Shown here one piece after another: positions 976-14,890 of a stretch of DNA of 64,000 nt; position 1 is the first letter of the stretch; every line of letters begins with the position of its first letter. The stretch is taken from positions 11,812 through 75,811 of the forward strand of contig CALVYH010000005.1 of NCBI GenBank assembly GCA_944372115.1, given 5' to 3'. The stretch comes from an uncultured Bacilli bacterium. GTDB lineage: Bacteria > Bacillota_I > Bacilli_A > RFN20 > CAG-826. A program made the position numbers and the translations under genes. A model generated the notes under the pieces. That model was not told where the DNA came from. It saw only the letters and a program-made list of their open reading frames with translations, and did no database searches.

Positions 976-2958
976 ATGAACATTTTATTTTTACTTATTT
1001 CATTAATTATTAGTGCTTTTTTCCTTTTTTTAGGTTTATTCTTTTTAAAAGTTAAATATGTTAAAAGTTTTGATGAAGATACTTTAATTTCATCAAATGA
1101 AAAGAATTATGCTTTATTTGATGTTGATAATAAATATAAAGAATATGTTAATTCTTATAAGATAATTAAAGAAGGTAATAATCGTTTTTTAGCATTAAAA
1201 TTAAAAGGTAATGTTAAATATATTAATTTTAATGTTGTATGTTATAAGAATGAAAAAGTATTAAAAATATTAAATATTAAAGATGTATTAAATAACTATA
1301 AAGAAGATTATATAGTTAAACTTCCTTTAAATGCTTCATCTTTTAAAATAGATATCATAGAAGTTAATGATATCTATTTTATAGAAAATGAAGATATTAA
1401 AAAGAGTGTTTATAAATATATTCTTTCTTCTTTATTTTTTAGTATAAGTGCTACATTAGCTTATTTTTTAATCTATTTAATTACACTTTCTTTTTCTCCT
1501 TCTTCTATATATGATTCATGGGATAAATTAATTGAGAGTGTATTTTATGTTCCTATTTTTTATATTTTAGGAGCAATATTATTTCTTTTAACATTTATTA
1601 TCTCTTTTTTAATTCTTTTCTTTTTAAATAAAGAAAAAAGATTTGCTTTTAAAGAAAACAAGAAAAAAGATGAAGAAGAAAGTAAAGAATTTAATATATA
1701 TAAATATTTAAAATTTAATGTTAAAACTAAAAAGGATAAAAAAGATAATAGTGAATATTTTATTATTAAATTAATTAAAAAAAGAGAGTTTATTAAAGGT
1801 GAAATTTTAATAAAAGCAATTGATATAAATAACGAACCTCTTTTATCTTTTCCTTATAAAATTGATAAACATTTTAAAAAGATTAACATTAAGAAAAATA
1901 AAAATATTAAAGAATTAAAGATTTCTTATAACACTCTTTATTTTAAAAAGTTTAGATATATTAATAACGAAGCAATTTATAATGAATATTTAAATAAAAA
2001 TGGTGTCAAATGTGAAACACTTCATATTAAAGGTGTTTTATATTCCATTCTTACTTTCGCGCTTATTTTTATTACCTCATTAGGAGCAAATTTTTATGCT
2101 TCTTATCAATTAAATATTTATAGAAATATCGAAAATTATTTAAATTATGAATTCATTAATGAAGAAAACGAAGAAGAAGGTATAAAAATTGTTGAATCAC
2201 CAATTAAATTTAATACTTTATATATTCCTAAAGAAATTGATGGATATAAAGTTGTTTCAATAGGAGAAGGTGCTTTTAAAAATAACGAATACATTAAAAA
2301 GGTTTATTTTTCTAATGAAATAGAAATTGAAAGTGAAGCCTTTTTAAATTGTTCTTCTTTAGAATATGTCGATTTATCTAAAGTTAACAACATTGGATTA
2401 TCTTCTTTTGAAAAAACTAGTTTAAAAGAAATTTATGTTGGCGAAAATTTAGATACAGTCAATTCGAAAGCATTTGCTGAAATTAAAACTTTAAAGAAAG
2501 TTACTTTAGATAATCCTGATTTAGCTCTTGGATTAAATGTTTTTAGAAACTCTGTTATAGACGGAGATTTAATTATTAATTACGAACCTATTGGTTTACA
2601 AAGAACCTCCTTTATAGGAATATCTTGCAATGAAGTTTATATTTATGATTATAGTAAGATTACTAAAGTAAATTATAATGTTTCATATTATTTAAAAAGA
2701 GACCATACTTATTTTTTAAGCGAATGTATCCATGATGATGTTTCTTTTATTGTTGATAAAAATGGAAAAATTATAAAAACAATGGATGTTGAAGTAAGTT
2801 CCACTTTTGAAGGAACTTGTATAGAAAAATCTTATACTGAATATTTATGTCATAGATGTGGAAATAAATATAAAGTCGAAGGTAAATTAAATTTCCAAAA
2901 TCATAACTTTGTAGATGGTTATTGTACTTGGTGTGGAAAAGCAGAAGATAGAAATTAA
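976..2958 (+). CDS. Polytopic membrane protein with a BspA-type leucine-rich repeat (LRR_5-like) ectodomain and a C-terminal CxxC...CxxC cysteine motif
   Basis: There are about 4 hydrophobic helices (aa 1-25, about 150-175, about 190-220, about 345-370). LRR_5-like repeats are visible (VVSIGEGAFKNNEYIKKVYFSNEIEIESEAFLNCSSLEYVDLS...IGLSSFEKTSLKEIYVG...VNSKAFAEIKTLKKVTL). The C-terminus reads TCIEKSYTEYLCHRCG...YCTWCGK. It is the first gene of a packed operon. Confidence 0.65.
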   Translation: MNILFLLISLIISAFFLFLGLFFLKVKYVKSFDEDTLISSNEKNYALFDVDNKYKEYVNSYKIIKEGNNRFLALKLKGNVKYINFNVVCYKNEKVLKILNIKDVLNNYKEDYIVKLPLNASSFKIDIIEVNDIYFIENEDIKKSVYKYILSSLFFSISATLAYFLIYLITLSFSPSSIYDSWDKLIESVFYVPIFYILGAILFLLTFIISFLILFFLNKEKRFAFKENKKKDEEESKEFNIYKYLKFNVKTKKDKKDNSEYFIIKLIKKREFIKGEILIKAIDINNEPLLSFPYKIDKHFKKINIKKNKNIKELKISYNTLYFKKFRYINNEAIYNEYLNKNGVKCETLHIKGVLYSILTFALIFITSLGANFYASYQLNIYRNIENYLNYEFINEENEEEGIKIVESPIKFNTLYIPKEIDGYKVVSIGEGAFKNNEYIKKVYFSNEIEIESEAFLNCSSLEYVDLSKVNNIGLSSFEKTSLKEIYVGENLDTVNSKAFAEIKTLKKVTLDNPDLALGLNVFRNSVIDGDLIINYEPIGLQRTSFIGISCNEVYIYDYSKITKVNYNVSYYLKRDHTYFLSECIHDDVSFIVDKNGKIIKTMDVEVSSTFEGTCIEKSYTEYLCHRCGNKYKVEGKLNFQNHNFVDGYCTWCGKAEDRN

Positions 2959-2971
2959 AGGAGCATTTATT

Positions 2972-4264
2972 ATGGTTTTAACTAGCACAGTGTCACAAAT
3001 TGTTCTATTAGTTGTTGCTACTATCGTTTTTTTGATATTAGCAGTTATTTCTTGTCTTATTCTTTATAAATATTTAAAAGAAAATAATACATTTATTATT
3101 AAAGGATCGAATAAAAAGAATAAAGAAATTTTAGATTTGAGTGAAGAAATCGGACGTGGAGAAGAAGCTGCTAATAATGATAGCGAAAGATTTTCTAAAC
3201 TTTTAATTTTAGATAGTAAAAAAAGAGCTCAAATTGAATATGATAATGTAGTTTCTTTAAAAACTTTTTCAGAAGATTTTAGAAATTTCTGTGCTTCAAA
3301 CTTAAAACTTTATTACACAATTGACGATATTCGCTCTTTTATTGCTAATTTAGCTACTTCAAAAATTATGATTCTTCAAGGTATGAGTGGTACTGGTAAA
3401 ACTTCTATCGCTTTAGCTTTTGAAAAATATATTAATAACGTTCTTGATCCAATTGCAATTCAACCAATGTGGAAAGAAAGAAGCGATTTAATCGGTTATT
3501 TTAATGAATTTACTAAGAAATTTAATGAAACACCTTTATTAGAAGAATTATATGACGCAACTTTTAACGATAAAATCTATATTATCGTTTTAGATGAAGT
3601 TAATATTGCTCGTGTTGAATATTATTTTGCTGAATTTTTATCTCTTTTAGAATATCCAAACATTGAACAAAGAACATTAGAAATTACTAATGATGTTTGG
3701 GATAGAGATCCTAGAAAATTACAAAAAGGGAGACTTCAAATCGGGGAGAATGTTTATTTTTTAGGAACAGCAAATAATGATGAATCTACATTTGCTATTT
3801 CTGATAAAGTTTATGATAGAGCGATGGTTTTAAATTTAGAGAAAAAAGCTGAAAGTTTTGAAGGAAATAAAGTAAATCGATGTCAAATTTCTAATACTCA
3901 ATTTTTAAAACTTGCTAATGAAGCTGAAGAATCGTTTAAAAAATCAAGTGATTATGATGAACTTCAAAACTGGATTAATAAAATTAATGAACTTATCGTC
4001 GAATCTTTTGGAATAAGTTTTGGTAATCGTATGAGCGGGCAAATATTAAGATATGTTCCAGTTTATGTTGCTTGTGGCGGAAGTAAAGAAGAAGCTTTTG
4101 ATGATTTCGTTGCAAAAAAGATTTTAAGAAAACTTGAAGGAAAGGATTTTTTAAAACTTTCAACTGCTGTAAAACCATTTATCGATAAACTTAATTTGGT
4201 TTTTGGGGTTGATTCAATGAAAAAATGTAAAGAATACGTTTCTAAATATAATATTGTTGGTTAG
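2972..4264 (+). CDS. Membrane-anchored McrB-like AAA+ (AAA_5 type) NTPase, paralog 1
   Basis: I place the start at ATG 2972, preceded by AAAGGAG at 2957-2963; the track ORF starts at 2915. There is one N-terminal TM helix (VSQIVLLVVATIVFLILAVISCLILY). Walker A is GMSGTGKT (3380-3403) and Walker B is IIVLDEVN. The segment LDEVNIARVEYYFAEFLSLLE resembles McrB DEINRAN..FGE..LLE, and FLGTANNDEST resembles McrB (I/L)GTMNTADRS. Confidence 0.7.
   Translation: MVLTSTVSQIVLLVVATIVFLILAVISCLILYKYLKENNTFIIKGSNKKNKEILDLSEEIGRGEEAANNDSERFSKLLILDSKKRAQIEYDNVVSLKTFSEDFRNFCASNLKLYYTIDDIRSFIANLATSKIMILQGMSGTGKTSIALAFEKYINNVLDPIAIQPMWKERSDLIGYFNEFTKKFNETPLLEELYDATFNDKIYIIVLDEVNIARVEYYFAEFLSLLEYPNIEQRTLEITNDVWDRDPRKLQKGRLQIGENVYFLGTANNDESTFAISDKVYDRAMVLNLEKKAESFEGNKVNRCQISNTQFLKLANEAEESFKKSSDYDELQNWINKINELIVESFGISFGNRMSGQILRYVPVYVACGGSKEEAFDDFVAKKILRKLEGKDFLKLSTAVKPFIDKLNLVFGVDSMKKCKEYVSKYNIVG
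3368..3405 (+). repeat. 38-nt stretch identical to 6264-6301 (Walker A region of the two McrB-like paralogs)
   Basis: atgattcttcaaggtatgagtggtactggtaaaacttc is present at both sites. A second identical 41-nt run (aatgtttattttttaggaacagcaaataatgatgaatctac) lies at 3749-3789 and 6645-6685. Confidence 0.9.
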
Positions 4265-4267
4265 TTT

Positions 4268-5788
4268 ATGAATAGAAGTGGTAGAAAGTATAATCAATAT
4301 AAAGGATTAAAACGATATTTAGATGTTGTTACAAAAAATCCAAAATTAGAACAACTTGGAGATTTAGTTAAAAATTCGCCATCTCTTTTTAATGAGATTA
4401 ATACTTTTGAAAACTCTATAAAAATTGAATCTGATTGGATTGAAAAAATCGAATTTTATCTTCCTTTTATTTCAAGCGCTATTTTAGAAGGAAGAAGATT
4501 TATTTTAAATACAGGCGAAACTGTTGATATTGAAAAAATTAAAAGAGTTTCTAAAGATTCTATCGTTGATTTAGCTAAACATTCAAATAACATTCGAAAA
4601 TTTAATGAAGTAAGTCAAGATGTTGAACCTAGAAAGCTTTTGATAGTTGAAAAAAATGATGATTTTGGATTGTACGAAAATAAATTTTTAGTTTATTTAC
4701 TTTTACTTTTAAAATCATTCGTTTCTATGCGTTTTGATAAAATCAAAGAAGCTCAATCAATATTAGAAATTAAAACAACCTTAAAAAATAACGTTACTAT
4801 TTTTAAAGATTCAATTAGTTATGATATTTCAATTGATGATATTAGACATACTGATTTAAAGGTCGAAGAAAACGATGTTAATAAAGATTTAATTAATAGA
4901 CTCAATGCAATTACTTCAACAATTGAACAATTTTTTAAAAGTGATTTAATTTCAATTGTTGCAAAACTTCCTTTAATTAGTGAACCAATTCAAAAAAATA
5001 ACGTCTTAAAAAATGATCCTAATTTTGTTAAATGTTATGAACTTTATGAATATTTAAAAAACTATAATAAAGATGGTTTTGAAATTGAAAAAAGTGAAAT
5101 TAAATTAGATAAATTGAGCGATTCATATATTAATTTCTTTAAATTTATTCCAACAATTTTAACTTTCCTTTCTTATTCTGAATCAAAAGATTTATTCCCA
5201 CTTTTAGAAGAAGAATATATAAATGAAAAAGAAGATATTAGAAAATTAAATCATGAAACATTAATTAATAAGATTTCTGAAATTTTTGCTAGTGAATCTT
5301 TAAATAAAGAAGAAATAACAAATATCATTCTTAAACTTGAAGATGAATTAAAGAATAAAGATGAATTATTAAATAAAACAAAAGAAGATGATTTGAATAA
5401 GTTAAATGAAGTAAAGAAAGATTTAAATAGAAAAATTGAAACATTAACTTATAACTATGAAGATTTAAATAATCGTTATGAAGAAGATACAAAACAATTA
5501 AATAATGAAGTTATAAAGTTAAAAGATGAAAAAGAAGCTTTAAAAAAAGAATATGAAGAAGAAATAAATAAACTTAAAGCAATAAATAGAGCACTTAATA
5601 TTCGTATTAATCCTGAATTTGAAAAAGAAAAGAACGATGAAGTTTATTTTAATGAACTAGAAAAGGATTTTGATGTTTTTACTAATTACTTCAAAGATAA
5701 ATGGAAAGAAGTTAAGAAAGTGATTAAAAAAGAGAAGAAAAAAGAAATTCGTGAATTATTAAAAAAGAAGGAGAAGTTAAATGGTTAA
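4268..5788 (+). CDS. Coiled-coil protein with a McrC/DUF2357-like N-terminal region and no recognisable nuclease domain
   Basis: It lies between the two McrB-like genes, 3 nt after one and overlapping the next by 8 nt. The motif EPRKLLIVEKNDDFGLYENKFLVYLLLLL resembles the (D/T)x(Y)ENRFLK signature of McrC/DUF2357 partners. The C-terminal 190 aa or so is a K/E/N/L heptad-like coiled coil (LEDELKNKDELLNKTKEDDLNKLNEVKKDLNRKIETL...). No PD-(D/E)xK-like block was seen by eye. Confidence 0.45.
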   Translation: MNRSGRKYNQYKGLKRYLDVVTKNPKLEQLGDLVKNSPSLFNEINTFENSIKIESDWIEKIEFYLPFISSAILEGRRFILNTGETVDIEKIKRVSKDSIVDLAKHSNNIRKFNEVSQDVEPRKLLIVEKNDDFGLYENKFLVYLLLLLKSFVSMRFDKIKEAQSILEIKTTLKNNVTIFKDSISYDISIDDIRHTDLKVEENDVNKDLINRLNAITSTIEQFFKSDLISIVAKLPLISEPIQKNNVLKNDPNFVKCYELYEYLKNYNKDGFEIEKSEIKLDKLSDSYINFFKFIPTILTFLSYSESKDLFPLLEEEYINEKEDIRKLNHETLINKISEIFASESLNKEEITNIILKLEDELKNKDELLNKTKEDDLNKLNEVKKDLNRKIETLTYNYEDLNNRYEEDTKQLNNEVIKLKDEKEALKKEYEEEINKLKAINRALNIRINPEFEKEKNDEVYFNELEKDFDVFTNYFKDKWKEVKKVIKKEKKKEIRELLKKKEKLNG

Positions 5789-7157
5789 TAGAAAATTAAT
5801 CGATCAAATTTGTGCTATATTGATGGTCGTTGATTTAATTCTTGGACTATTCTTTTTATCATTCCTTTTAGCATTTACTTTAAGCGATGGAGGAGGTTTT
5901 ATTTTAACTAATCCTTTAGTTTATATAGTAATTGTTATGCTTTTTATTATTCCTTCTTGTTATGTTGTTTATTATCTTTTTACTTTAAAAAGCGATGCTG
6001 AAGAAGAGTTTATTTTTAACAGAGAATCTTATTTGAAGGTTAAAAATTTAACTCATAAAGACAGTGAAGATAAAAATGCATACCGTTTTTCTAAACTTTA
6101 TGATTTAGATAATGAAAAAAGAGAAGAAATTGTTTTTGATAAAATTACTTCTTTAAGCACTTTTTGTAATGAATTTAGATATTATTGTGCTGAAAAGTTA
6201 AATTTATATTATGATATCGAAGACATTAGAGCGTTTATATCAAATTTAGGTGTTTCTAAACTTATGATTCTTCAAGGTATGAGTGGTACTGGTAAAACTT
6301 CAATCGCTTTAGCTTTTGAAAAATTTATTGGTAATGTTTTAGAACCAGTGGCTATTCAACCAATGTGGAAAGAAAGAAGTGATTTAGTTGGATATTTTAA
6401 TGAATTTACTAAGAAATTTAACGAAACTTTGCTTTTAGAAGAATTATATAAATCTAATTTCGACGATAAGATTTATATAATTATTTTAGACGAAGTTAAT
6501 ATTGCTAGAATTGAATATTATTTTGCTGAATTTCTTTCTCTTTTAGAATATCCAGATGAAGATAGAAGAAAACTTGAAATTACAAATGATGTTTGGATCA
6601 ATGACCCAAGAATGTTAAAAGAAGGCAAATTATTAATTAAAGATAATGTTTATTTTTTAGGAACAGCAAATAATGATGAATCTACCTTTGCTATTTCAGA
6701 TAAAGTTTATGACCGTTCAATGGTTTTAAATTTAAATAAAAAAGCCACACCATTTAAGGGAGAAAAAGTTAAAGAAAGAAAGATTTCTAACACTGATTTT
6801 AAAAATATTTGTGATGAAAAAATAAAAGAATTTACCGTAAGTGATGATTATAAAGTTGTAATGAAGTGGATTAATATTATTGATGAGTTATTAAATCAAA
6901 ATTTCTCAATTAATTTTGGTAATCGTATGTTAAATCAAATTTTAAAATATGTTCCATTATATGTTGAATGCGGAGGAAGTAAAGAAGAAGCTTTTGATGA
7001 TTTTGTTTCTAAAAAGATTTTAAGAAAATTAGAATCAAAAGATTTTTTAAGACTTGGACCTGCAATTAATAAATTTTTAAATGAATTAGATGAATATTAT
7101 GGTAAAGACTCAATGCCTTTATCTAGAGAATATTTGAAGAAATTTGTTCAATTTTAA
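5781..7157 (+). CDS. Membrane-anchored McrB-like AAA+ (AAA_5 type) NTPase, paralog 2
   Basis: There are two N-terminal TM helices (ICAILMVVDLILGLFFLSFLLAF and LVYIVIVMLFIIPSCYVVYYLF). Walker A is GMSGTGKT (6276-6299) and Walker B is IIILDEVN, followed by FLGTANNDEST. By eye, roughly two-thirds to three-quarters of residues match 2972-4264 over the ATPase region. Confidence 0.7.
   Translation: MVNRKLIDQICAILMVVDLILGLFFLSFLLAFTLSDGGGFILTNPLVYIVIVMLFIIPSCYVVYYLFTLKSDAEEEFIFNRESYLKVKNLTHKDSEDKNAYRFSKLYDLDNEKREEIVFDKITSLSTFCNEFRYYCAEKLNLYYDIEDIRAFISNLGVSKLMILQGMSGTGKTSIALAFEKFIGNVLEPVAIQPMWKERSDLVGYFNEFTKKFNETLLLEELYKSNFDDKIYIIILDEVNIARIEYYFAEFLSLLEYPDEDRRKLEITNDVWINDPRMLKEGKLLIKDNVYFLGTANNDESTFAISDKVYDRSMVLNLNKKATPFKGEKVKERKISNTDFKNICDEKIKEFTVSDDYKVVMKWINIIDELLNQNFSINFGNRMLNQILKYVPLYVECGGSKEEAFDDFVSKKILRKLESKDFLRLGPAINKFLNELDEYYGKDSMPLSREYLKKFVQF
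6264..6301 (+). repeat. Partner copy of the 38-nt identical stretch at 3368-3405
   Basis: Direct comparison of the two regions. Confidence 0.9.
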
Positions 7158-7178: not shown

Positions 7179-9323
7179 ATGAAACCAAAAACAAAAATAC
7201 TAGTCTTAATAGTTACTGTTATTGCTTTTTGTAGTATTGTCGTAGCTACTCTTTTTGGTTTAAATACTCTTGGTGTTTTAAGACTTTTTGAAACTCCTAT
7301 TTCTATTAAAATTGAAGACTATACTACTACATATAATGCTGAAAAAGTTGAAGCGAATTTTCCTTATCAAATAACAAGTGGCGGTTTAATTTCTGGTGAT
7401 TCCATAGAAGTTACTACAAAAGAAGAAATAATAAATGCAGGAACCTATCAAAATGTTTTTGAAGTAAAAATTATTGATAGAAACGGACAAAATGTTTCAT
7501 CTTCATATGATATAAATATTGACATGGGTGAAATTGAAGTTTCGCCTATTGAAATAACATTACAAAGTGCAACCGCAGTTTTTCCAAATGATGGTGAAGT
7601 TCATAGTGATTTTGGTGTTTCTATTATTAAAGGTAGCCTTATAAATAACGATTATTTTGACTTTAGTAATTTTAAAGAATTTACTGTTAAAGGTTATCAT
7701 GAAAATAAATTTACTGCTAAAGTTTTTACAGAAGAAAATGAAGATGTAACATTTAATTATGATATAACTTATCAATATGGTTATATCATAATTACAGATC
7801 TTTCAGAAAGTGGCGAGAGTGGACCCTCTAGCGAAATTAATTATCCAGAAAAGGTTACTTCCGAAAGTGATATTCAGGGAGCTCCGGGAGCATTGAAAGA
7901 AGGAGATGGTGGTGAATATAAAGCTGGCGGAGAAAAAACTTTTGAAACTATTTTTAATTATACCCCTACAGTCGCTGGATCATCGTTTTTTAAAATCTCA
8001 AGCGATGGTGATTATACAAAAAAAGGTTGGAAAACTGCGCCAAAATATAAGTCAAAATATGGCGTAAATCCTCAAGAATTTATTACTGATTTATTAAGAA
8101 ATCATAAGGAAAGATATTTTTCTGGTTCATTAGAATATGTAAGTATTACTCAAAGAGACATGGATATTGTGCCTTGGCACCCTATTCTTAAATATAAACA
8201 AGTAACAGATACTTATTCAATTTCATCTGATTTAAAAAGTAAAACAATAAATACAGAAGGCTATATGTTTGATTATATAAAAGATTATAGTCTTTTAGAA
8301 AATACAACTTTTTCAAGTGAAGATTATGTTAACGAAGAAAAAGAATATAGAAAATTTGTTTATGATAATTATTTACAAATACCTGATTCTACTAAAACAT
8401 CGATTAATAATTATATAAATAAATATAATTTAAATACTGGGAATCTTTTATCAACTATAAATAAAATTATTGCCCATTTTAAGACGTACTTTTTATATGA
8501 TTATGAGGGATTTAAAGATTACTTAGAGGATGATGTCCTTGTCTCTTTTTTAGAAAAATATAAAGTAGGAGATTGTTCTAGATTTTCCGGTTCTGGGGTA
8601 TTAATGTTAAGAGCCATGGGTTATCCTGCTAGAAGAGTTGGCGGATATGGAGTTCCGGGTTATGCGGTAGGTAAAACTTATTCAGTCAATCCTTGGGCTG
8701 GCCATGCTATAGCTGAAGTTTATATTGATGGGAAAGGTTGGGTAGGCATTGAATTTACTGTTGCCGATTTAGCTCCTACTTGCGTCTATCCTCCTTCATG
8801 GGATGTTAGCGATAATGGAGAAGCTTATGATTTAATTCTTTCAACCGATGATATTGTTGAAGAATATAATGGCTCACCTGTTTCTAGTAATCAAAAATAT
8901 CTTTTAACTGGAGAGTTAAAAGATGGTGATTCTTTAGTAATTAACAATAATAACACTCTTTATAATTGTGGATATATTGATAATATTCCTAGTTATTTGA
9001 TTGTTGATTCTAATTTTAATGATGTTACGAGTAAATATAAGATTAAAGAAGATTTTGGTAAAATTGTAATGAATCAAAAAGATTTAACATTGGAAACAGA
9101 TAATGCGACTTTTTCTTATGATGGAAATGAGCACAATCCTACTTATAAGATAAGTGGGTTAGTAAATGGCGATAAAGTTGATAGCGTTGTAATTTATCCT
9201 GCAAAAGAGTTAGGAACTCATCTTTCAGTTGTAATAATAAATTCTATTAAAAATGCATCAGGAGAAGATGTTACAGCAAATTATAATATTACATATGTTT
9301 TTGGACATATAAGGGTGGAATAA
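7179..9323 (+). CDS. Membrane-anchored transglutaminase-like (Cys-His-Glu) protein flanked by MBG (YGX-type)-like repeats
   Basis: RBS AGGAGG lies upstream. The N-terminal signal anchor is ILVLIVTVIAFCSIVVATLFGL. The transglutaminase core is GDCSRFSGSGVLMLRAMGYPARRVGGYG (Cys466, 8574-8576), GHAIAEVYIDGKGW (His509, 8703-8705) and GIEFT (Glu525, 8751-8753). Repeats follow the pattern Y(D/N)G..GD..aGtYqN..NYdItY.yG.I.I. Confidence 0.75.
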   Translation: MKPKTKILVLIVTVIAFCSIVVATLFGLNTLGVLRLFETPISIKIEDYTTTYNAEKVEANFPYQITSGGLISGDSIEVTTKEEIINAGTYQNVFEVKIIDRNGQNVSSSYDINIDMGEIEVSPIEITLQSATAVFPNDGEVHSDFGVSIIKGSLINNDYFDFSNFKEFTVKGYHENKFTAKVFTEENEDVTFNYDITYQYGYIIITDLSESGESGPSSEINYPEKVTSESDIQGAPGALKEGDGGEYKAGGEKTFETIFNYTPTVAGSSFFKISSDGDYTKKGWKTAPKYKSKYGVNPQEFITDLLRNHKERYFSGSLEYVSITQRDMDIVPWHPILKYKQVTDTYSISSDLKSKTINTEGYMFDYIKDYSLLENTTFSSEDYVNEEKEYRKFVYDNYLQIPDSTKTSINNYINKYNLNTGNLLSTINKIIAHFKTYFLYDYEGFKDYLEDDVLVSFLEKYKVGDCSRFSGSGVLMLRAMGYPARRVGGYGVPGYAVGKTYSVNPWAGHAIAEVYIDGKGWVGIEFTVADLAPTCVYPPSWDVSDNGEAYDLILSTDDIVEEYNGSPVSSNQKYLLTGELKDGDSLVINNNNTLYNCGYIDNIPSYLIVDSNFNDVTSKYKIKEDFGKIVMNQKDLTLETDNATFSYDGNEHNPTYKISGLVNGDKVDSVVIYPAKELGTHLSVVIINSIKNASGEDVTANYNITYVFGHIRVE

Positions 9324-9326
9324 AAT

Positions 9327-12300
9327 ATGCTAACCGAAGTATATAAAAATAAAATTAAAAGATATTTAGCTTTTTATAAATTCATTTATAGATTTAGAAT
9401 CTTACTTATAATTTTAGCGTGTGTAATTGTAGGCGTTACATCTACATTATTATCATTAAAAGGTTTAGTAATCGATACATTGAAAATTAGCGATGTTCAA
9501 TATGGTGAAAAATTGACTTATTCATCAACAGGTCTTTTTGATAATTATATTCATTATGAATTTAAAAAAGATGGTTCTAATGAATGGAGTCAAAATGTTC
9601 CTAAATTAGTCGGAAAATATCAAATTCGTGGTGTTTCAAAAAATATTTTTGGAGGATTTTATTATGGAAAGCCTCAAAATTTTGAAATTAATCCAAAAAT
9701 TTGTGATGTAACTGTTTCTGAAAAAGTATCAACATATGGCGATATACCAACTATGAATTTTAATCTTTTGAGTGGAGATGAGATTGTTGATTTAAATTTT
9801 ACTTATAATAGTTATGGCGATAATTATGCAAACGTAAGTTTTGATAAAGATAGTGTTGTTGTAGTTAATAAAAGTGGTGAAGACGTTTCTTATTGCTACG
9901 ATTTTAATTTTGAAAATTCTTATGATTTAACATTAAAACCTAGAAATATTGTAGTTAAAGCAAGCGGTATTTATGAATACGACGGTGAAACTCATAATGT
10001 CGAAACTGTTGATTTAAAAAATGGAACTTTAGCTAATGGCGATAAAATTAGTTATGAAAATAGTGAAGGATTTGTTGATGGTGGAGTTCATGCTTCAAGG
10101 CCAAAAATAACAATTAAAGATAGACAAAATCGAGATGTTACTAAATTTTATGATATAGATTACAGTCACGATTCTACGATTGTAATAAATCCTAGAAAAA
10201 TCACTATAAAAACAGGTGATTTTTCTAAAACATATGATGGCAAGATTTATGAAGGAATTGTTTCTTTTTCTATAACTGAAGGAAGTTTGATTAATGGTGA
10301 TAGAATTGAATTAACTTATCCTAAATATATCAACGCAGGAAATTACCAAAATAAACCAACTTATACAATTTTTGATAAAGATGGTAAAAATAAGAGTTCA
10401 AATTATGCAGTTACTTTTGATTGTGGAAAATATATTATTAACCCAATTAAACTTACTTTGAATTTTAAGTATTTCGATAAAGTATATTCTGGGTGGATTG
10501 GGGATAATATGAATTTTTCTTATACAGGGAATCTTTTAGAAGGTCATGAAATTAGATTTTATGAAACATCTTCAGAAGCTATTAATACGTTGCACGTTGG
10601 AAAGCACGATAATTACTTAGGTGCTAAAGTATTTGATGCATCTGGAAAAGACGTGAGCATTAATTATGAAATAACTATTAAATCAAATTCGTACGAGGTT
10701 ACAAAAAGATCGATTACAATTAAAGCTCAAAGTTATACTTTTACTTATGATGGTACAAAAAAATATTGCCCTTTCTTTGATGTTGAAGGCGAATTAGGAG
10801 AACCAGATGAAATTTTGATTACGAAACTTACGACTGCCAGAAACGTAGGCGTATATGATAATATTTTAAAATTTGAAATAAAAAATAACTTATATGAAAC
10901 AGATGTAACAAATGATTATGACATTACTTTTATACCTGGAAAAATTACTATTTTAGAGGAAGATAAATCGCCTATAGATTTAGGTTTACCTGATAGTAAT
11001 ATTATGGGAGATGTTTTTCTAGGTCCTAATATGGGTAGTCTTGTCATGAAGTATACCGTTAAAAGTGGAAGTGCTGGTCAATTTTTAAGATCTATTAGTA
11101 CTGGTGTTTATGATAAAGACAGTTTTTTAATGGGGCCAAATTACACGCCTAGATATGGAGTAAATGTTATGGAATTTATTCCAGAATTATTAAAAAACAA
11201 GATGAAACCATTTGAAGGTGTATTAGATTACTATAGATTTGATAATAGAGGATTTGATTATGTTCCATATTATTCAGTGCTTTCAAAAACACAGAAATCA
11301 GATAATTATGTAATTGATTCAGATTTAAAAACTAAAAAAATCAATATAAAAGGTTACAATTTTGACTATGTAAGAGACCACGCCTTAATTGATAACGCAA
11401 CTTTTACGAATCAAGATTTTAAAAACGAAGAACGTGTATACTCAGATTTTGTTAAACAAAATTATCGTTCTTTACCTACTAATTTATTTAACATACTTGC
11501 CGACTATATTAGAGAAAATAATTTGGAAGGAAGAAATTTATTAGATTCTTTAAATAGAATTATAAAATTCTTTTCTGAAACTGGCGGATTTATTTATGAT
11601 ATGGGCGATTATGGAAATAGTACATCTGAAGAACCTATTATAAATTTCTTAACAAAGACAAGAACAGGAGTATGTAATATGTTTGCATCCTCTGGAGCAG
11701 CTTTATTAAGAGTTATGGGTTATCCAACAAGAGTTGTTTCTGGATATGGATTCTCAAGTGGTTCTAATGTAGGCGGTGTTTATAATGTGACTGGACCTGG
11801 ACATGCTTTATGTGAAGTATATGTTGATGGGAAAGGTTGGGTAACAGTTGAATTTACTGTTGCTCCTGTTGCAGAAGACTTATATTTGCCTCCTAAAGAT
11901 TCAGCTGGTGGTGATCCATTAGAAGACTCTTCGCTAGATCAAGATAATATAAATTATGATGAGATTCAGACTGGAGGTGCTGAAATAGATCCTAATGGTC
12001 AACAAGATGAAGAAGTAGATAATCCTGGACAAAGCGGAGATTCTGGAGAAAGCGATGATCCAACTGGCGATCCTCAACCAGGAGAAACTGAAGGAGAAGA
12101 AAAAGAGGATTACGATTTATACATATACGGAGATAGCGGAAGTTTTGAATATGATGGCAAGCCACATTCGGTCGATACGTATAATTTAGAAGGCGAGTTA
12201 AAAGATGGACATACGCTAGAAATATCTGGTGTTCCTTCTATAACAAAGGTTGGAATTATCAATAATAATTTTTCATATAATATTAAAGATGAATTTGGCA

Positions 12301-12617
12301 ATATTGTAACTGATCAATATAAGATTTATTTCTCTAAAGGTACAGTTTCAGTAACTAAAAGGATCTTAAAGATAAAAACAACTACAACTTCAACATCATT
12401 GTCTAGTTTAAGTTCTTTCTCTAATATTATTGAATCAATTGATGGATTAGCTCCGGGGGATAAAATTGTTGATAGAATAGATTTAATTTTAACCTCAACA
12501 AGTAAAGGAACATATCAAAACGTAGTAATAGTTTCTAAAATAGTTAATGAAAAAGGAGAGGATGTTACTTCTTGTTATGCTATAAACTATGATTATGGAA
12601 CAATAACATTAAATTAA
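9327..12617 (+). CDS. Large membrane-anchored transglutaminase-like protein with many MBG-like repeats and an acidic spacer (paralog of 7179-9323)
   Basis: The TM helix is ILLIILACVIVGVTSTLLSL. About 7 N-terminal and 2 C-terminal MBG-like repeats are visible (YEYDGETH...GD...NAGNYQN...NYAVTFDCGKYIINP). The core is GVCNMFASSGAALLRVMGYPTRVVSGYG (Cys783, 11673-11675), GHALCEVYVDGKGW (His826, 11802-11804) and VEFT (Glu842, 11850-11852). A D/E/G/P-rich spacer lies at about 11890-12135. Confidence 0.75.
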   Translation: MLTEVYKNKIKRYLAFYKFIYRFRILLIILACVIVGVTSTLLSLKGLVIDTLKISDVQYGEKLTYSSTGLFDNYIHYEFKKDGSNEWSQNVPKLVGKYQIRGVSKNIFGGFYYGKPQNFEINPKICDVTVSEKVSTYGDIPTMNFNLLSGDEIVDLNFTYNSYGDNYANVSFDKDSVVVVNKSGEDVSYCYDFNFENSYDLTLKPRNIVVKASGIYEYDGETHNVETVDLKNGTLANGDKISYENSEGFVDGGVHASRPKITIKDRQNRDVTKFYDIDYSHDSTIVINPRKITIKTGDFSKTYDGKIYEGIVSFSITEGSLINGDRIELTYPKYINAGNYQNKPTYTIFDKDGKNKSSNYAVTFDCGKYIINPIKLTLNFKYFDKVYSGWIGDNMNFSYTGNLLEGHEIRFYETSSEAINTLHVGKHDNYLGAKVFDASGKDVSINYEITIKSNSYEVTKRSITIKAQSYTFTYDGTKKYCPFFDVEGELGEPDEILITKLTTARNVGVYDNILKFEIKNNLYETDVTNDYDITFIPGKITILEEDKSPIDLGLPDSNIMGDVFLGPNMGSLVMKYTVKSGSAGQFLRSISTGVYDKDSFLMGPNYTPRYGVNVMEFIPELLKNKMKPFEGVLDYYRFDNRGFDYVPYYSVLSKTQKSDNYVIDSDLKTKKINIKGYNFDYVRDHALIDNATFTNQDFKNEERVYSDFVKQNYRSLPTNLFNILADYIRENNLEGRNLLDSLNRIIKFFSETGGFIYDMGDYGNSTSEEPIINFLTKTRTGVCNMFASSGAALLRVMGYPTRVVSGYGFSSGSNVGGVYNVTGPGHALCEVYVDGKGWVTVEFTVAPVAEDLYLPPKDSAGGDPLEDSSLDQDNINYDEIQTGGAEIDPNGQQDEEVDNPGQSGDSGESDDPTGDPQPGETEGEEKEDYDLYIYGDSGSFEYDGKPHSVDTYNLEGELKDGHTLEISGVPSITKVGIINNNFSYNIKDEFGNIVTDQYKIYFSKGTVSVTKRILKIKTTTTSTSLSSLSSFSNIIESIDGLAPGDKIVDRIDLILTSTSKGTYQNVVIVSKIVNEKGEDVTSCYAINYDYGTITLN

Positions 12618-12647
12618 ACTTATTGAAATAATACCCTCCATATAAAC

Positions 12648-12694
12648 TCATGCTTAATTATTTATCTTTAAATAGTAAGCATGACTTTTATTTT
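12648..12694 (+). terminator. Rho-independent terminator of the six-gene operon
   Basis: A 9-bp stem tcatgctta (12648-12656) / taagcatga (12676-12684) is followed by cttttatttt. Confidence 0.65.
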
Positions 12695-12742
12695 CTAGTT
12701 GAAAATAAAGTTCAAATAAGATTTAATAATTATCGGTTTGCT

Positions 12743-12823
12743 AGAGTGTCTATTATTAATATTAATAAAAATAAAATATTAATAATTCCCATGACTAACC
12801 ACTCTTAAAACAAAACAGGGGGA
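12743..12823 (+). promoter_or_regulatory. Candidate preQ1 riboswitch (class I-like P1 and A-rich tail) with an embedded AT-rich hairpin, upstream of queT
   Basis: P1 is AGAGUG (12743-12748) / CACUCU (12800-12805). The 3' part CUAACCACUCUUAAAACAAAACAGGGGG resembles known preQ1-I aptamers (B. subtilis ...CUACACCCUCUAUAAAAAACUAAGG; T. tengcongensis ...CCCCAGUUAACAAAACAAGG). The tail runs into the SD GGGGG (12818-12822), 13 nt before the ATG. A 12-bp hairpin is inserted at 12752-12763 / 12775-12786. Confidence 0.5.
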
Positions 12824-12835
12824 TATATTTTAATT

Positions 12836-13444
12836 ATGGAAAAAGTTAGTTCCAACGAAAAAAAGACTTTTCGTGAATCTTCAAAGTCTTTTTTTAAAGA
12901 TTTCTTTAGTGTAAAAATGATTACACTAAATGCATTTGTTGCTGCATTATATGCTGTATTAACTATTGTTTGTTATCCACTTTCTTATAGTTATATGCAA
13001 CTTAGATTTTCAGAATTATTAAATCTTTTAGTATTTTTTAATCCTTCATATACTTTAGGATTAACAATTGGTTGTTTATTATCAAATTTAATGTCTTCAG
13101 CAGGAATATTTGATATTACTTTAGGTACATTAGCAACATTTATTTCTTGCTTAATTATGATTTTATTTTCTAAATTAACTAAGAATTTATTTTTTAGTGG
13201 GTTAATTCCTTGTATTGTTAATGCTATTACAGTTCCTTTTATTATTTATTTAGCTTCAAGTGGAACAAGTGATGCCTTTAATTTAGAAGCTCCAATTTTC
13301 TTTATTATGGGAGGATGGACTTTTTTAGGTGAATTTATTGCAATAAATATTATTGGTTATAGTGTTTTTATGCTCTTGGCTAAAAAATATAAAGGATTTC
13401 AACAATTATTTAACGCAAATTATAATTTAGATTTTAAATGGTAA
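12836..13444 (+). CDS. queT: Queuosine precursor transporter QueT (ECF S-component-like)
   Basis: It is a 202-aa, roughly 5-6 TM protein with a QueT-like N-terminus (MITLNAFVAALYAVLTIVCYPLSYSYMQLRFSELLNLL). It sits directly upstream of tgt-queA-queH and downstream of the preQ1-like leader. Confidence 0.8.
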   Translation: MEKVSSNEKKTFRESSKSFFKDFFSVKMITLNAFVAALYAVLTIVCYPLSYSYMQLRFSELLNLLVFFNPSYTLGLTIGCLLSNLMSSAGIFDITLGTLATFISCLIMILFSKLTKNLFFSGLIPCIVNAITVPFIIYLASSGTSDAFNLEAPIFFIMGGWTFLGEFIAINIIGYSVFMLLAKKYKGFQQLFNANYNLDFKW

Positions 13445-13479
13445 AAATTTACCGATTAAGAAAATGGATAAATTTAATT

Positions 13480-13504
13480 GCTACCAAAATAATGGTAGCT
13501 TTTA
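13480..13504 (+). terminator. Terminator after queT
   Basis: A 7-bp stem gctacca / tggtagc with a 6-nt loop is followed by tttt. Confidence 0.55.
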
Positions 13505-13604
13505 AATTGCTTTTAAATAAAACATATTTAACTTTAAATGAAAGTATTATTAAATAAAAATCTAAAATAAATAAAATAATTACATTTAAAGCGAATATTT
13601 TTTT

Positions 13605-13657
13605 AAGCTCGTAGCATTCTTGAATATAAATATTCAGGGTGGGTTGAGCTTTTTTTA
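13605..13657 (+). terminator. Second hairpin plus T-run upstream of tgt (terminator or attenuator-like)
   Basis: The outer stem is aagctc / gagctt and the inner stem is tgaatat / atattca, followed by ttttttt. Its function is unknown. Confidence 0.3.
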
Positions 13658-13693
13658 TAAAATAAGCCCATCTTATTTTATATATATAATTAA

Positions 13694-14890
<1,197 letters not shown>

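Follow-up and report, generated by a model that had tools for sequence, protein, structure and literature searches.

A nuclease-free McrC homologue with a coiled coil, encoded between two membrane-anchored McrB-like GTPases in a surface-protein operon

McrBC is a textbook GTP-dependent restriction enzyme. What, then, is the task of a McrC-like protein that carries a long coiled coil and in which no nuclease can be found? The question is raised by a gene in the window, the 64,000-nucleotide stretch of DNA analyzed here (uncultured Bacilli bacterium, GenBank assembly GCA_944372115.1, contig CALVYH010000005.1, positions 11,812 to 75,811). An earlier note on this DNA had described the product, hereafter McrC-CC, as a McrC/DUF2357-like N-terminal region fused to a coiled coil, and had proposed that it couples two neighboring ATPases. 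Our analysis indicates that McrC-CC probably serves as the McrC-type subunit of a GTPase machine that descends from McrBC, no longer cleaves DNA, and works on the cytoplasmic side of the membrane. The gene and its parts are as follows:

4268..5788, + strand: McrC-CC, 506 amino acids (aa), a nuclease-free McrC-like protein with no transmembrane (TM) segment
4268..5233, + strand: N-terminal domain of McrC-CC, residues 1–322, kept across 2201 representative clusters
4508..4756, + strand: core matching DUF2357, residues 81–163, which holds YEN(K/R)F at residues 136–140 (nt 4673–4687)
4760..4849, + strand: predicted long beta-hairpin, residues 165–178 and 181–194, after a 33-residue helix (132–164) in the AlphaFold2 (AF2) model
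5195..5608, + strand: predicted coiled coil, helices 310–341 and 347–447, of differing length across the family
5639..5782, + strand: C-terminal helical motif FxELExxxxxFxxxFxxxWxxxKKxI(R/K)K, conserved in the family, with a basic tail after it

Relatives of McrC-CC were collected by a word-indexed search, which returned 33, and by a full HMMER scan with the profile of the N-terminal domain, which returned 2201 representative clusters (defined at 50% identity; E ≤ 1e-3), 990 of them at E ≤ 1e-30. The domain is N-terminal in the best 150 of the 2201 matches listed, and listed members range from fragments of less than 300 aa to proteins of 1333 aa, most being 500–750 aa long. When compared with Pfam, residues 81–163 of McrC-CC matched positions 109–191 of the 251-position DUF2357 profile (PF09823; E = 7.8e-5, 22.5 bits). 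Among 80 representatives of the family, 38 matched the same profile with E ≤ 0.01, the best of them at 3.2e-9. Several long relatives exceeded its cut-off, with scores of 23.3–36.4 bits; the Clostridial orthologue in locus L075, at 36.4 bits, covers profile positions 89–221. An independent test of kinship was provided by a plasmid locus in which a gene for an NxD-type AAA ATPase is followed by one annotated by PGAP as "DUF2357 domain-containing protein." Alignment of the family N-domain profile with this protein (WP_192930687.1, Deinococcus sp. AJ005 plasmid p96k) by hhalign gave a probability of 90.7% and E = 1.2e-6 over 195 columns. YENKF was paired with YENRV, and KNNVLKNDPNF with ITNILGNDPHY; this second motif lies ~105 residues downstream of the first. 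Judged by profile similarity, the N-terminal ~320 residues of McrC-CC share ancestry with the DUF2357 domain at the N-terminus of McrC, and the assignment made in the earlier note was borne out by these matches.

The block EPRKLLIVEKNDDFGLYENKFLVYLLLLLKSFV, which had been singled out as a McrC/DUF2357-type motif, corresponds to residues 120–152 of McrC-CC, and the open reading frame (ORF) given for the protein, 4268..5788, proved exact. Y136, E137, and N138 are invariant in all 80 representatives, as are W57, L102, P121, L145, F151, P240, N245, F253, and G270, and every one of the 80 has R or K at position 139. Four further basic positions are strongly conserved: R155 (79/80, K in the remaining one), R/K211 (78/80), K/R243 (73/80), and K/R248 (78/80). 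AF2 modeled the N-domain with a mean predicted local distance difference test score (pLDDT) of 85.6 and a predicted template modeling score (pTM) of 0.64; pLDDT of the full-length model was 83.5. In these models, helix 132–164, the hairpin of two 14-residue strands, and the further helices resemble the finger domain of McrC as it has been described, a helical bundle with a long beta stalk (Niu et al., 2020, PMC7680126). The hairpin at residues 165–194 is a candidate counterpart of the "stalk" with which McrC reaches into the McrB ring.

The C-terminal part of McrC-CC differs from that of nuclease-bearing McrC homologues. A McrC homologue encoded on a Lactococcus plasmid contains a PDDEXK_7 domain (residues 385–551) directly after the part (residues 185–366) that aligns with the McrC-CC N-domain. 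The family profile showed no relation to this PDDEXK_7 domain (hhalign probability 0.1%), and no nuclease Pfam family was detected in McrC-CC, in the 80 representatives, or in 10 long relatives. The absence of a nuclease, as reported in the earlier note, is thereby extended to ~90 relatives. In its place, AF2 predicts an all-helical region (helices 310–341, 347–447, and 458–505): the coiled coil and the conserved C-terminal helix occupy the position of the PD-(D/E)xK nuclease of the relatives.

Residues 320–506 consist to 62% of K, E, L, and N and contain one Pro and one Gly. The heptad a/d score exceeded that of composition-preserving shuffles, with z = 5.1 for the C-terminal part and z = 2.1 for the N-terminal part. 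Across the family, the coiled-coil region is rich in E, K, L, and A, with hardly any Cys, Pro, Gly, or Trp. A long coiled coil had been proposed before, and its helical nature and heptad signal held up; it is not uninterrupted, however, as had been stated, since two breaks are predicted (residues 342–346, and 448–457 with P449). The last ~45 residues, which had been counted as generic coiled coil, form a family-conserved motif, with F461, E465, W479, K483, K484, I486, and R/K487 conserved among the 80 representatives. This motif is a candidate docking element. A generic low-complexity K/E tail was considered and ruled out, given the heptad signal above shuffles and the conserved terminal motif.

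The first 12.6 kb of the window (G+C ~25%) contain six closely packed genes in one orientation, McrC-CC being the third. The other five are:

976..2958, + strand: gene 1, leucine-rich repeat (LRR) protein, a polytopic membrane protein with 4 hydrophobic segments and a C-terminal BspA-type LRR_5 domain, predicted extracellular
2972..4264, + strand: McrB-a, McrB-like GTPase paralogue 1, one N-terminal TM helix followed by an AAA+ domain
5781..7157, + strand: McrB-b, McrB-like GTPase paralogue 2, two N-terminal hydrophobic segments, catalytic motifs as in McrB-a
7179..9323, + strand: surface protein 1, with an N-terminal signal anchor, MBG-type repeats, and a transglutaminase-like core
9327..12617, + strand: surface protein 2, with a cytoplasmic tail of ~24 residues, one TM helix, and a big extracellular part with a transglutaminase-like core

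The two GTPases are 60% identical at the protein level and 76% at the DNA level. McrB-a matched Pfam AAA_5 (3.6e-8), NCBIfam McrB (1.7e-4), and the McrB chain 6hz4 of the Protein Data Bank (PDB; 1.8e-4); both GTPases resemble the McrB chains 6hz4/6ut6, and the PADLOC defence-candidate profile PDC-M26A matches them at 3.6e-44. Scans of McrC-CC itself against PADLOC and NCBIfam gave nothing meaningful. Walker A (GMSGTGKT) and Walker B (LDEVN) are intact in both. The signature N-N-D-E (GTANNDES) aligns with N-T-A-D of the E. coli protein (GLMNTADRS), i.e., it is of NxD and not NxxD type. An NxD signature followed by E or D defines the CoCoNuT/CoCoPALM branch (Bell et al., 2024, eLife 13:RP94800, PMC11090510). 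The N-terminal hydrophobic helices, one in McrB-a and two in McrB-b, stand at the place of the DNA-binding domain of canonical McrB; the N-terminal regions of ~130 aa consist of TM and linker parts, and no coiled coil was found in them by eye or with Pfam.

An observation on the GTPase pair concerns Clostridial loci, where it carries a direct repeat of ~1.1 kb with 98.1–99.6% DNA identity that spans the entire GTPase domain (L075:7651-12234, L073:7337-12535, L001:8192-12717, and L037:7000-12700; compare window:2972-7157). GTPase orthologues from different loci are ~58% identical at the protein level. The pattern suggests that gene conversion between the paralogues is still under way and spares the N-terminal membrane parts. 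Since the GTPase parts are nearly identical in most Clostridial loci, the paralogues differ there essentially in their membrane parts. Direct repeats of this kind could also lead to loss of the McrC gene or mislead genome assembly.

The gene junctions in the window are tight: the McrB-a stop and the McrC-CC start are separated by a 3-nt gap, and the end of the McrC-CC gene shares 8 nt with the beginning of the McrB-b gene, whose ATG lies downstream of an AAGGAG Shine-Dalgarno sequence. The program-made ORF of McrB-a begins at 2915, but an AGGAG precedes the ATG at 2972, immediately past the LRR gene stop, and this ATG is the likely start. These gaps, overlaps, and Shine-Dalgarno sequences point to a single operon with translational coupling. 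A Mollicutes code-4 artefact was ruled out, as translation table 11 leaves each of the six ORFs unbroken and homologues keep the start Met. Topology was predicted from the charges that follow the membrane anchors: positive charges place the GTPase domains in the cytoplasm, and most of the LRR and transglutaminase proteins is placed outside. McrC-CC, which has no TM segment, is predicted to be cytoplasmic. The LRR protein has hydrophobic segments at residues 3–21, 153–171, 197–215, and 353–371 and matches LRR_5 at E = 2.1e-15. Surface protein 1 has its TM segment at residues 7–25 and matches Transglut_core (1.8e-14) and, weakly, MBG_2; surface protein 2 has its TM segment at residues 25–43 and matches Transglut_core at 2.4e-13. 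By eye, both transglutaminase-like cores have the catalytic Cys (GDCSRF / GVCNMF) and His (GHAIAEVY / GHALCEVY), with Glu at the customary position of Asp (IEFT / VEFT). The proposal that McrC-CC is an adaptor or activator that couples both ATPases, possibly to the surface proteins, fits this operon and the predicted topology and is plausible.

To see how widely the arrangement is kept, 185,579 species genomes were scanned, and 250 loci encoding a relative of McrC-CC were found. Carriers are metagenome-assembled genomes (MAGs) of RF39-type Bacilli/Mollicutes, Ca. Onthovivens, Christensenellales, Oscillospiraceae, Anaeroplasma, and Acholeplasmataceae from human and animal guts; Anaerocaecibacter muris CLA-AA-M11 (Christensenellales, locus L073) is a cultured carrier. 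The gene order McrB-a, McrC-CC, McrB-b was found in the 31 loci long enough to judge. Where the contig reaches, the two transglutaminase-type giants come next; an LRR_5 protein lies upstream in most of these 31 loci, and a surface protein 1 orthologue is present in every one. The order is near-invariant across Bacilli and Clostridia, and sequence identity follows taxonomy. In the window, the operon is preceded by a MatE gene and followed by queT, tgt, queA, a queH-glycosyltransferase fusion, and then the S10 ribosomal operon; in relatives, the module adjoins tgt, rpoC/rpsL, or ribosomal operons, with synteny stable within lineages. When the module was compared by tblastn with 72,556 plasmids and 50,697 phages, no match was obtained. 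A mobile defence island, considered as an explanation, was ruled out: there were no plasmid or phage matches, and the flanks are housekeeping genes. Stable synteny, near-invariant order, and the absence of mobile copies together suggest an envelope function of housekeeping type that is inherited vertically.

Even the short cytoplasmic tail of surface protein 2 is conserved: the motif MLYxxYxxKI...RFR is kept from RF39 to Clostridia, and its Y6 is invariant in the 31 loci. Just past the TM segment of the same protein (window:9327-9470 and equivalents), G46 and Y59-G60 are likewise invariant, and the extracellular parts diverge. Two observations on individual genomes were also made. One MAG bears two complete six-gene modules, L006 (CASEVI010000002.1) and L010 (CASEVI010000004.1), whose McrC-CC N-domains are 95% and 63% identical to that of the window; two diverged copies in one bin mean that the module can duplicate and diverge within a genome. 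In L011, from the species-representative genome nearest the window, the surface protein 1 gene (~12000-14300) is split into ORFs of 206 and 542 aa. The gene is intact (714 aa) in the window, and the split in L011 may reflect a frameshift, decay to a pseudogene, or faulty assembly.

Clostridial operons add one more component, a GH3-like protein of ~1100 aa (Glyco_hydro_3_C plus an Fn3-like domain), found in L075:4194-7634, L073:4176-7370, L037:4237-7602, and L044:3863-7399. The GH3-like part is followed by a TM segment and then by a C-terminal McrB-like domain of ~350 residues that contains no Walker A, Walker B, or NxD motif. By its predicted layout, this fusion is a pseudo-GTPase joined across the membrane to an extracellular domain.

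We compared the window system with the systems nearest to it. The earlier note had described CoCoNuTs as coiled-coil-rich McrBC derivatives that keep their nucleases and carry the coils mainly on the McrB-like and helicase components. This background is incomplete and partly wrong when set against the published survey, in which McrC homologues of coiled-coil NxD systems often have no PD-(D/E)xK domain at all and coiled coils are also inserted in or fused to McrC homologues (Bell et al., 2024, PMC11090510). In the CoCoPALM branch of the same survey, which is anchored in the membrane, both partners bear coiled coils (Bell et al., 2024, PMC11090510). The most divergent members of our family, P0031 and P0033, sit in an operon type of their own (loci L087 and L086). 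L087 encodes a single NxD GTPase (NNDD), in which a short coiled coil comes after the TM helix, together with a McrC-CC of 803 aa, a signal peptidase resembling SipW (E = 1.3e-8), and several unannotated proteins, one with a weak camelysin-type match; it fits CoCoPALM, as matched to a description of a single paragraph (Bell et al., 2024, PMC11090510). The GTPase of the window is 42% identical to that of L087 over 361 aa (E = 7e-94), and the two McrC-CC proteins are 24% identical over 227 aa (E = 1e-15). Separately, L087:1-22262 and L086 are embedded among GGDEF/EAL genes (cyclic di-GMP [c-di-GMP] turnover) and a PNP_UDP_1 gene, which suggests a CoCoPALM-like sister locus regulated by c-di-GMP.

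What the window system and CoCoPALM have in common is a membrane-anchored NxD GTPase, a coiled coil on the McrC homologue, extracytoplasmic structural partners, and no recognizable nuclease. They differ in that the window has two GTPase paralogues around the McrC gene instead of one, and in that its GTPases show, by eye and with Pfam, neither an FtsB-like coiled coil nor an FtsB/DivIC match past the TM segment. Nor were signal-peptidase or TasA/camelysin-like genes found in positions 1–17.5 kb of the window or among the examined operon genes of related loci; the partners are the LRR_5 protein and two transglutaminase/MBG giants, with the GH3-McrB fusion added in Clostridia. Because the core is shared with the CoCoPALM-like L087 and the extracytoplasmic partners differ, we regard the window system as a sister of CoCoPALM, the nearest of the described systems and itself little characterized.

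The likeness to CoCoNuT lies in a DUF2357 domain (CnuC/McrC) that works with an NxD McrB-like GTPase, in GTPase domains 37–40% identical to those of the window, in the presence of coiled coils, and in the loss of PD-(D/E)xK from some subtypes. CoCoNuT GTPases, however, carry long cytoplasmic coiled coils where those of the window have TM anchors, and CoCoNuT operons, which are found on plasmids and in islands, include genes for nucleases (HEPN, PD-(D/E)xK, and others) and for predicted RNA-binding domains. In the window, by contrast, the McrC homologue has its coiled coil at the C-terminus, none of the six operon proteins has a nuclease, and the locus is chromosomal and linked to the envelope. 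Canonical McrC (E. coli, T. gammatolerans; Niu et al., 2020, PMC7680126; Nirwan et al., 2019, PMC6624300) shares with McrC-CC the McrB-type AAA+ GTPase as partner and the helix motif (E/A)N(K/R)(F/I) (LANRII at residue 104 of the E. coli protein), and its described finger domain resembles the helical bundle with a long beta-hairpin predicted for McrC-CC. The differences from canonical McrBC are the missing PD-(D/E)xK domain of McrC-CC and, in the GTPases, TM helices for the DNA-binding domain and NxD for NxxD.

A formal parallel is offered by operons for MoxR-type AAA+ proteins, VWA proteins, and transglutaminase-like membrane proteins, in which a helix-2-insert AAA+ protein (a relative of Pfam AAA_5/AAA_3) works with an adaptor in a conserved, non-defence setting. 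The relation is one of analogy: the ATPase is MoxR and not McrB/NxD, and the adaptor is VWA/DUF58 and not DUF2357. We found no description of the LRR/GH3/transglutaminase variant in the literature, including under McrB with transglutaminase and under PDC-M26, and no follow-up paper on CoCoPALM; the supplementary text of Bell et al. (2024) mentions neither CoCoPALM nor transglutaminase, GH3, or signal peptidase. The operon type appears to be new to the literature, and McrC-CC is a nuclease-free McrC homologue of the NxD branch.

How might such a machine work? By analogy with solved McrBC, the N-domain of McrC-CC would reach with its long beta-hairpin and its helical bundle into the pore of a McrB-like hexamer tethered to the membrane and would stimulate GTP hydrolysis through a conserved basic residue, for which R155, R211, and K243/K248 are candidates. 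The coiled coil would dimerize and replace the McrC nuclease dimer as the bridge, pairing two rings, and the basic C-terminal helix might dock on the membrane or on cytoplasmic tails, for example that of surface protein 2. Instead of cutting nucleic acid, the GTP cycle would assemble, hold, or remodel extracellular LRR/transglutaminase adhesins. An envelope function is the most economical reading because two sister systems couple the core to secreted or surface proteins, one of them through a trans-membrane fusion with a dead McrB domain. The coiled coil in place of a nuclease and the setting in a conserved surface-protein operon suggest that a motor of anti-phage origin now serves the cell envelope.

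Several results weigh against this reading. The DUF2357 score of McrC-CC itself is 0.8 bit below the Pfam gathering cut-off (23.3 bits). Structural similarity of the N-terminal half to McrC, one of the checks named in the earlier note, was not recovered: since the long helix might have spoiled a Foldseek search with the full-length model, residues 1–322 were also modeled and searched alone, and neither AF2 model had a PDB match at E < 0.1, nor was any McrC among the PDB matches listed for either. At the sequence level, phmmer and hmmsearch runs with McrC-CC and three family profiles against PDB sequences returned coiled-coil noise and chance kinase matches, so that the family profiles recovered no solved McrC, and hhalign of the N-domain profile with the single sequence of E. 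coli McrC was null. (E. coli McrC belongs to Pfam PF10117, a different family from DUF2357.) By sequence comparison, none of the four basic candidates could be equated with the active-site residue of the known proteins (R263 in T. gammatolerans, K157 in E. coli). NxD-type McrB GTPases are biochemically uncharacterized (Bell et al., 2024, PMC11090510). The proposed contacts between McrC-CC, the GTPases, and the surface proteins, like the role of the GTP cycle, are drawn from analogy. Finally, the nearest relatives with an assigned role are defence candidates, namely PDC-M26A and the CoCoNuT-like plasmid loci.

A bolder form of the envelope reading, which we put forward tentatively, is an undescribed transmembrane GTP-driven machine: a TM-tethered McrB-like ring, plugged and paired by McrC-CC, that would pass nucleotide-dependent motion or the energy for assembly on to giant LRR/transglutaminase/MBG adhesins. 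In Clostridia such a ring would take in the catalytically inactive McrB domain whose GH3-like fusion partner lies on the far side of the membrane. Taken with CoCoPALM, the machine would define a class of envelope motors derived from a restriction enzyme.

The strongest rival, though in our judgment an unlikely one, is anti-phage defence of the CoCoNuT/CoCoPALM lineage, in which the surface proteins would sense or block adsorption and the GTPases and McrC-CC would signal or execute an abortive response. Its effector would have to be something other than a nuclease, for example the transglutaminase-like proteins acting as cysteine proteases, or membrane disruption. Descent from McrBC and the 3.6e-44 match of the GTPases to a defence candidate speak for it, as does the nature of the closest plasmid-borne relatives, which are CoCoNuT-like pairs with DUF2357 or PD-(D/E)xK partners; the two diverged modules of L006 and L010 in one genome are a pattern common for diversifying systems, and the extracellular parts differ in size and sequence. 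In contrast, the operon proteins include no nuclease or other recognizable cytoplasmic effector. Copies on plasmids or phages were absent and synteny beside rpoC/rpsL, tgt, and ribosomal operons is stable, while a gene order that hardly varies from Bacilli to Clostridia, with identity that tracks taxonomy, likewise argues against defence.

It is quite improbable that the N-domain lacks common ancestry with McrC and owes its DUF2357 matches to a short hydrophobic helix motif (YENxF plus LLxxL), McrC-CC being an unrelated coiled-coil scaffold that happens to be encoded between two AAA+ genes. The empty structural searches, the missing sequence link to solved McrC chains, and the sub-threshold Pfam score of McrC-CC are what one would expect in that case, and 42 of the 80 relatives had no DUF2357 match at E ≤ 0.01. 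The matches, however, extend well beyond the motif, over 130–140 residues in L075 and 195 columns in hhalign, with best E-values of 3e-9 and 4.5e-9, and include the second motif, (T/N)N(V/I)L..(D/N)P.(F/Y), ~105 residues downstream. Moreover, the gene always adjoins those of McrB-type GTPases, the obligate partner of DUF2357 proteins. Least probable of all is that nucleic acid is still cut by a nuclease acting in trans or by a diverged fold hidden in residues ~240–320 or in a partner protein: in CoCoNuTs, nucleases from genes of their own do make up for a McrC that has lost its nuclease (Bell et al., 2024, PMC11090510), and residues 240–320 of the N-domain have no assigned function, but no nuclease family was detected in the six operon proteins of the window or in Clostridial operon proteins, Foldseek gave no nuclease match, the other operon products are predicted to be extracellular or membrane proteins, and the GTPases have TM helices for a DNA-binding domain.

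In the window system the two-protein core of McrBC, an AAA+ GTPase ring and the McrC that plugs it, is retained, with both nucleic-acid-handling parts swapped: TM helices replace the DNA-binding domain and a coiled coil replaces the nuclease. If McrC-CC is indeed part of a GTPase machine at the envelope, the operon would offer a testable entry to how adhesins are built or operated in poorly studied, mostly uncultured gut bacteria, and to the role of NxD McrB GTPases when the nuclease is absent. Should the defence explanation prove true instead, the system would be a McrBC derivative with a surface-linked, non-nuclease mode of action.

A last observation concerns the genes downstream of the operon. 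At the end of the queT-tgt-queA cluster, a 542-aa ORF (window:15940-17568) combines an epoxyqueuosine reductase QueH domain (residues 29–209) with a family-2 glycosyltransferase domain (residues 230–445). The predicted fusion hints at a queuosine-linked sugar modification.

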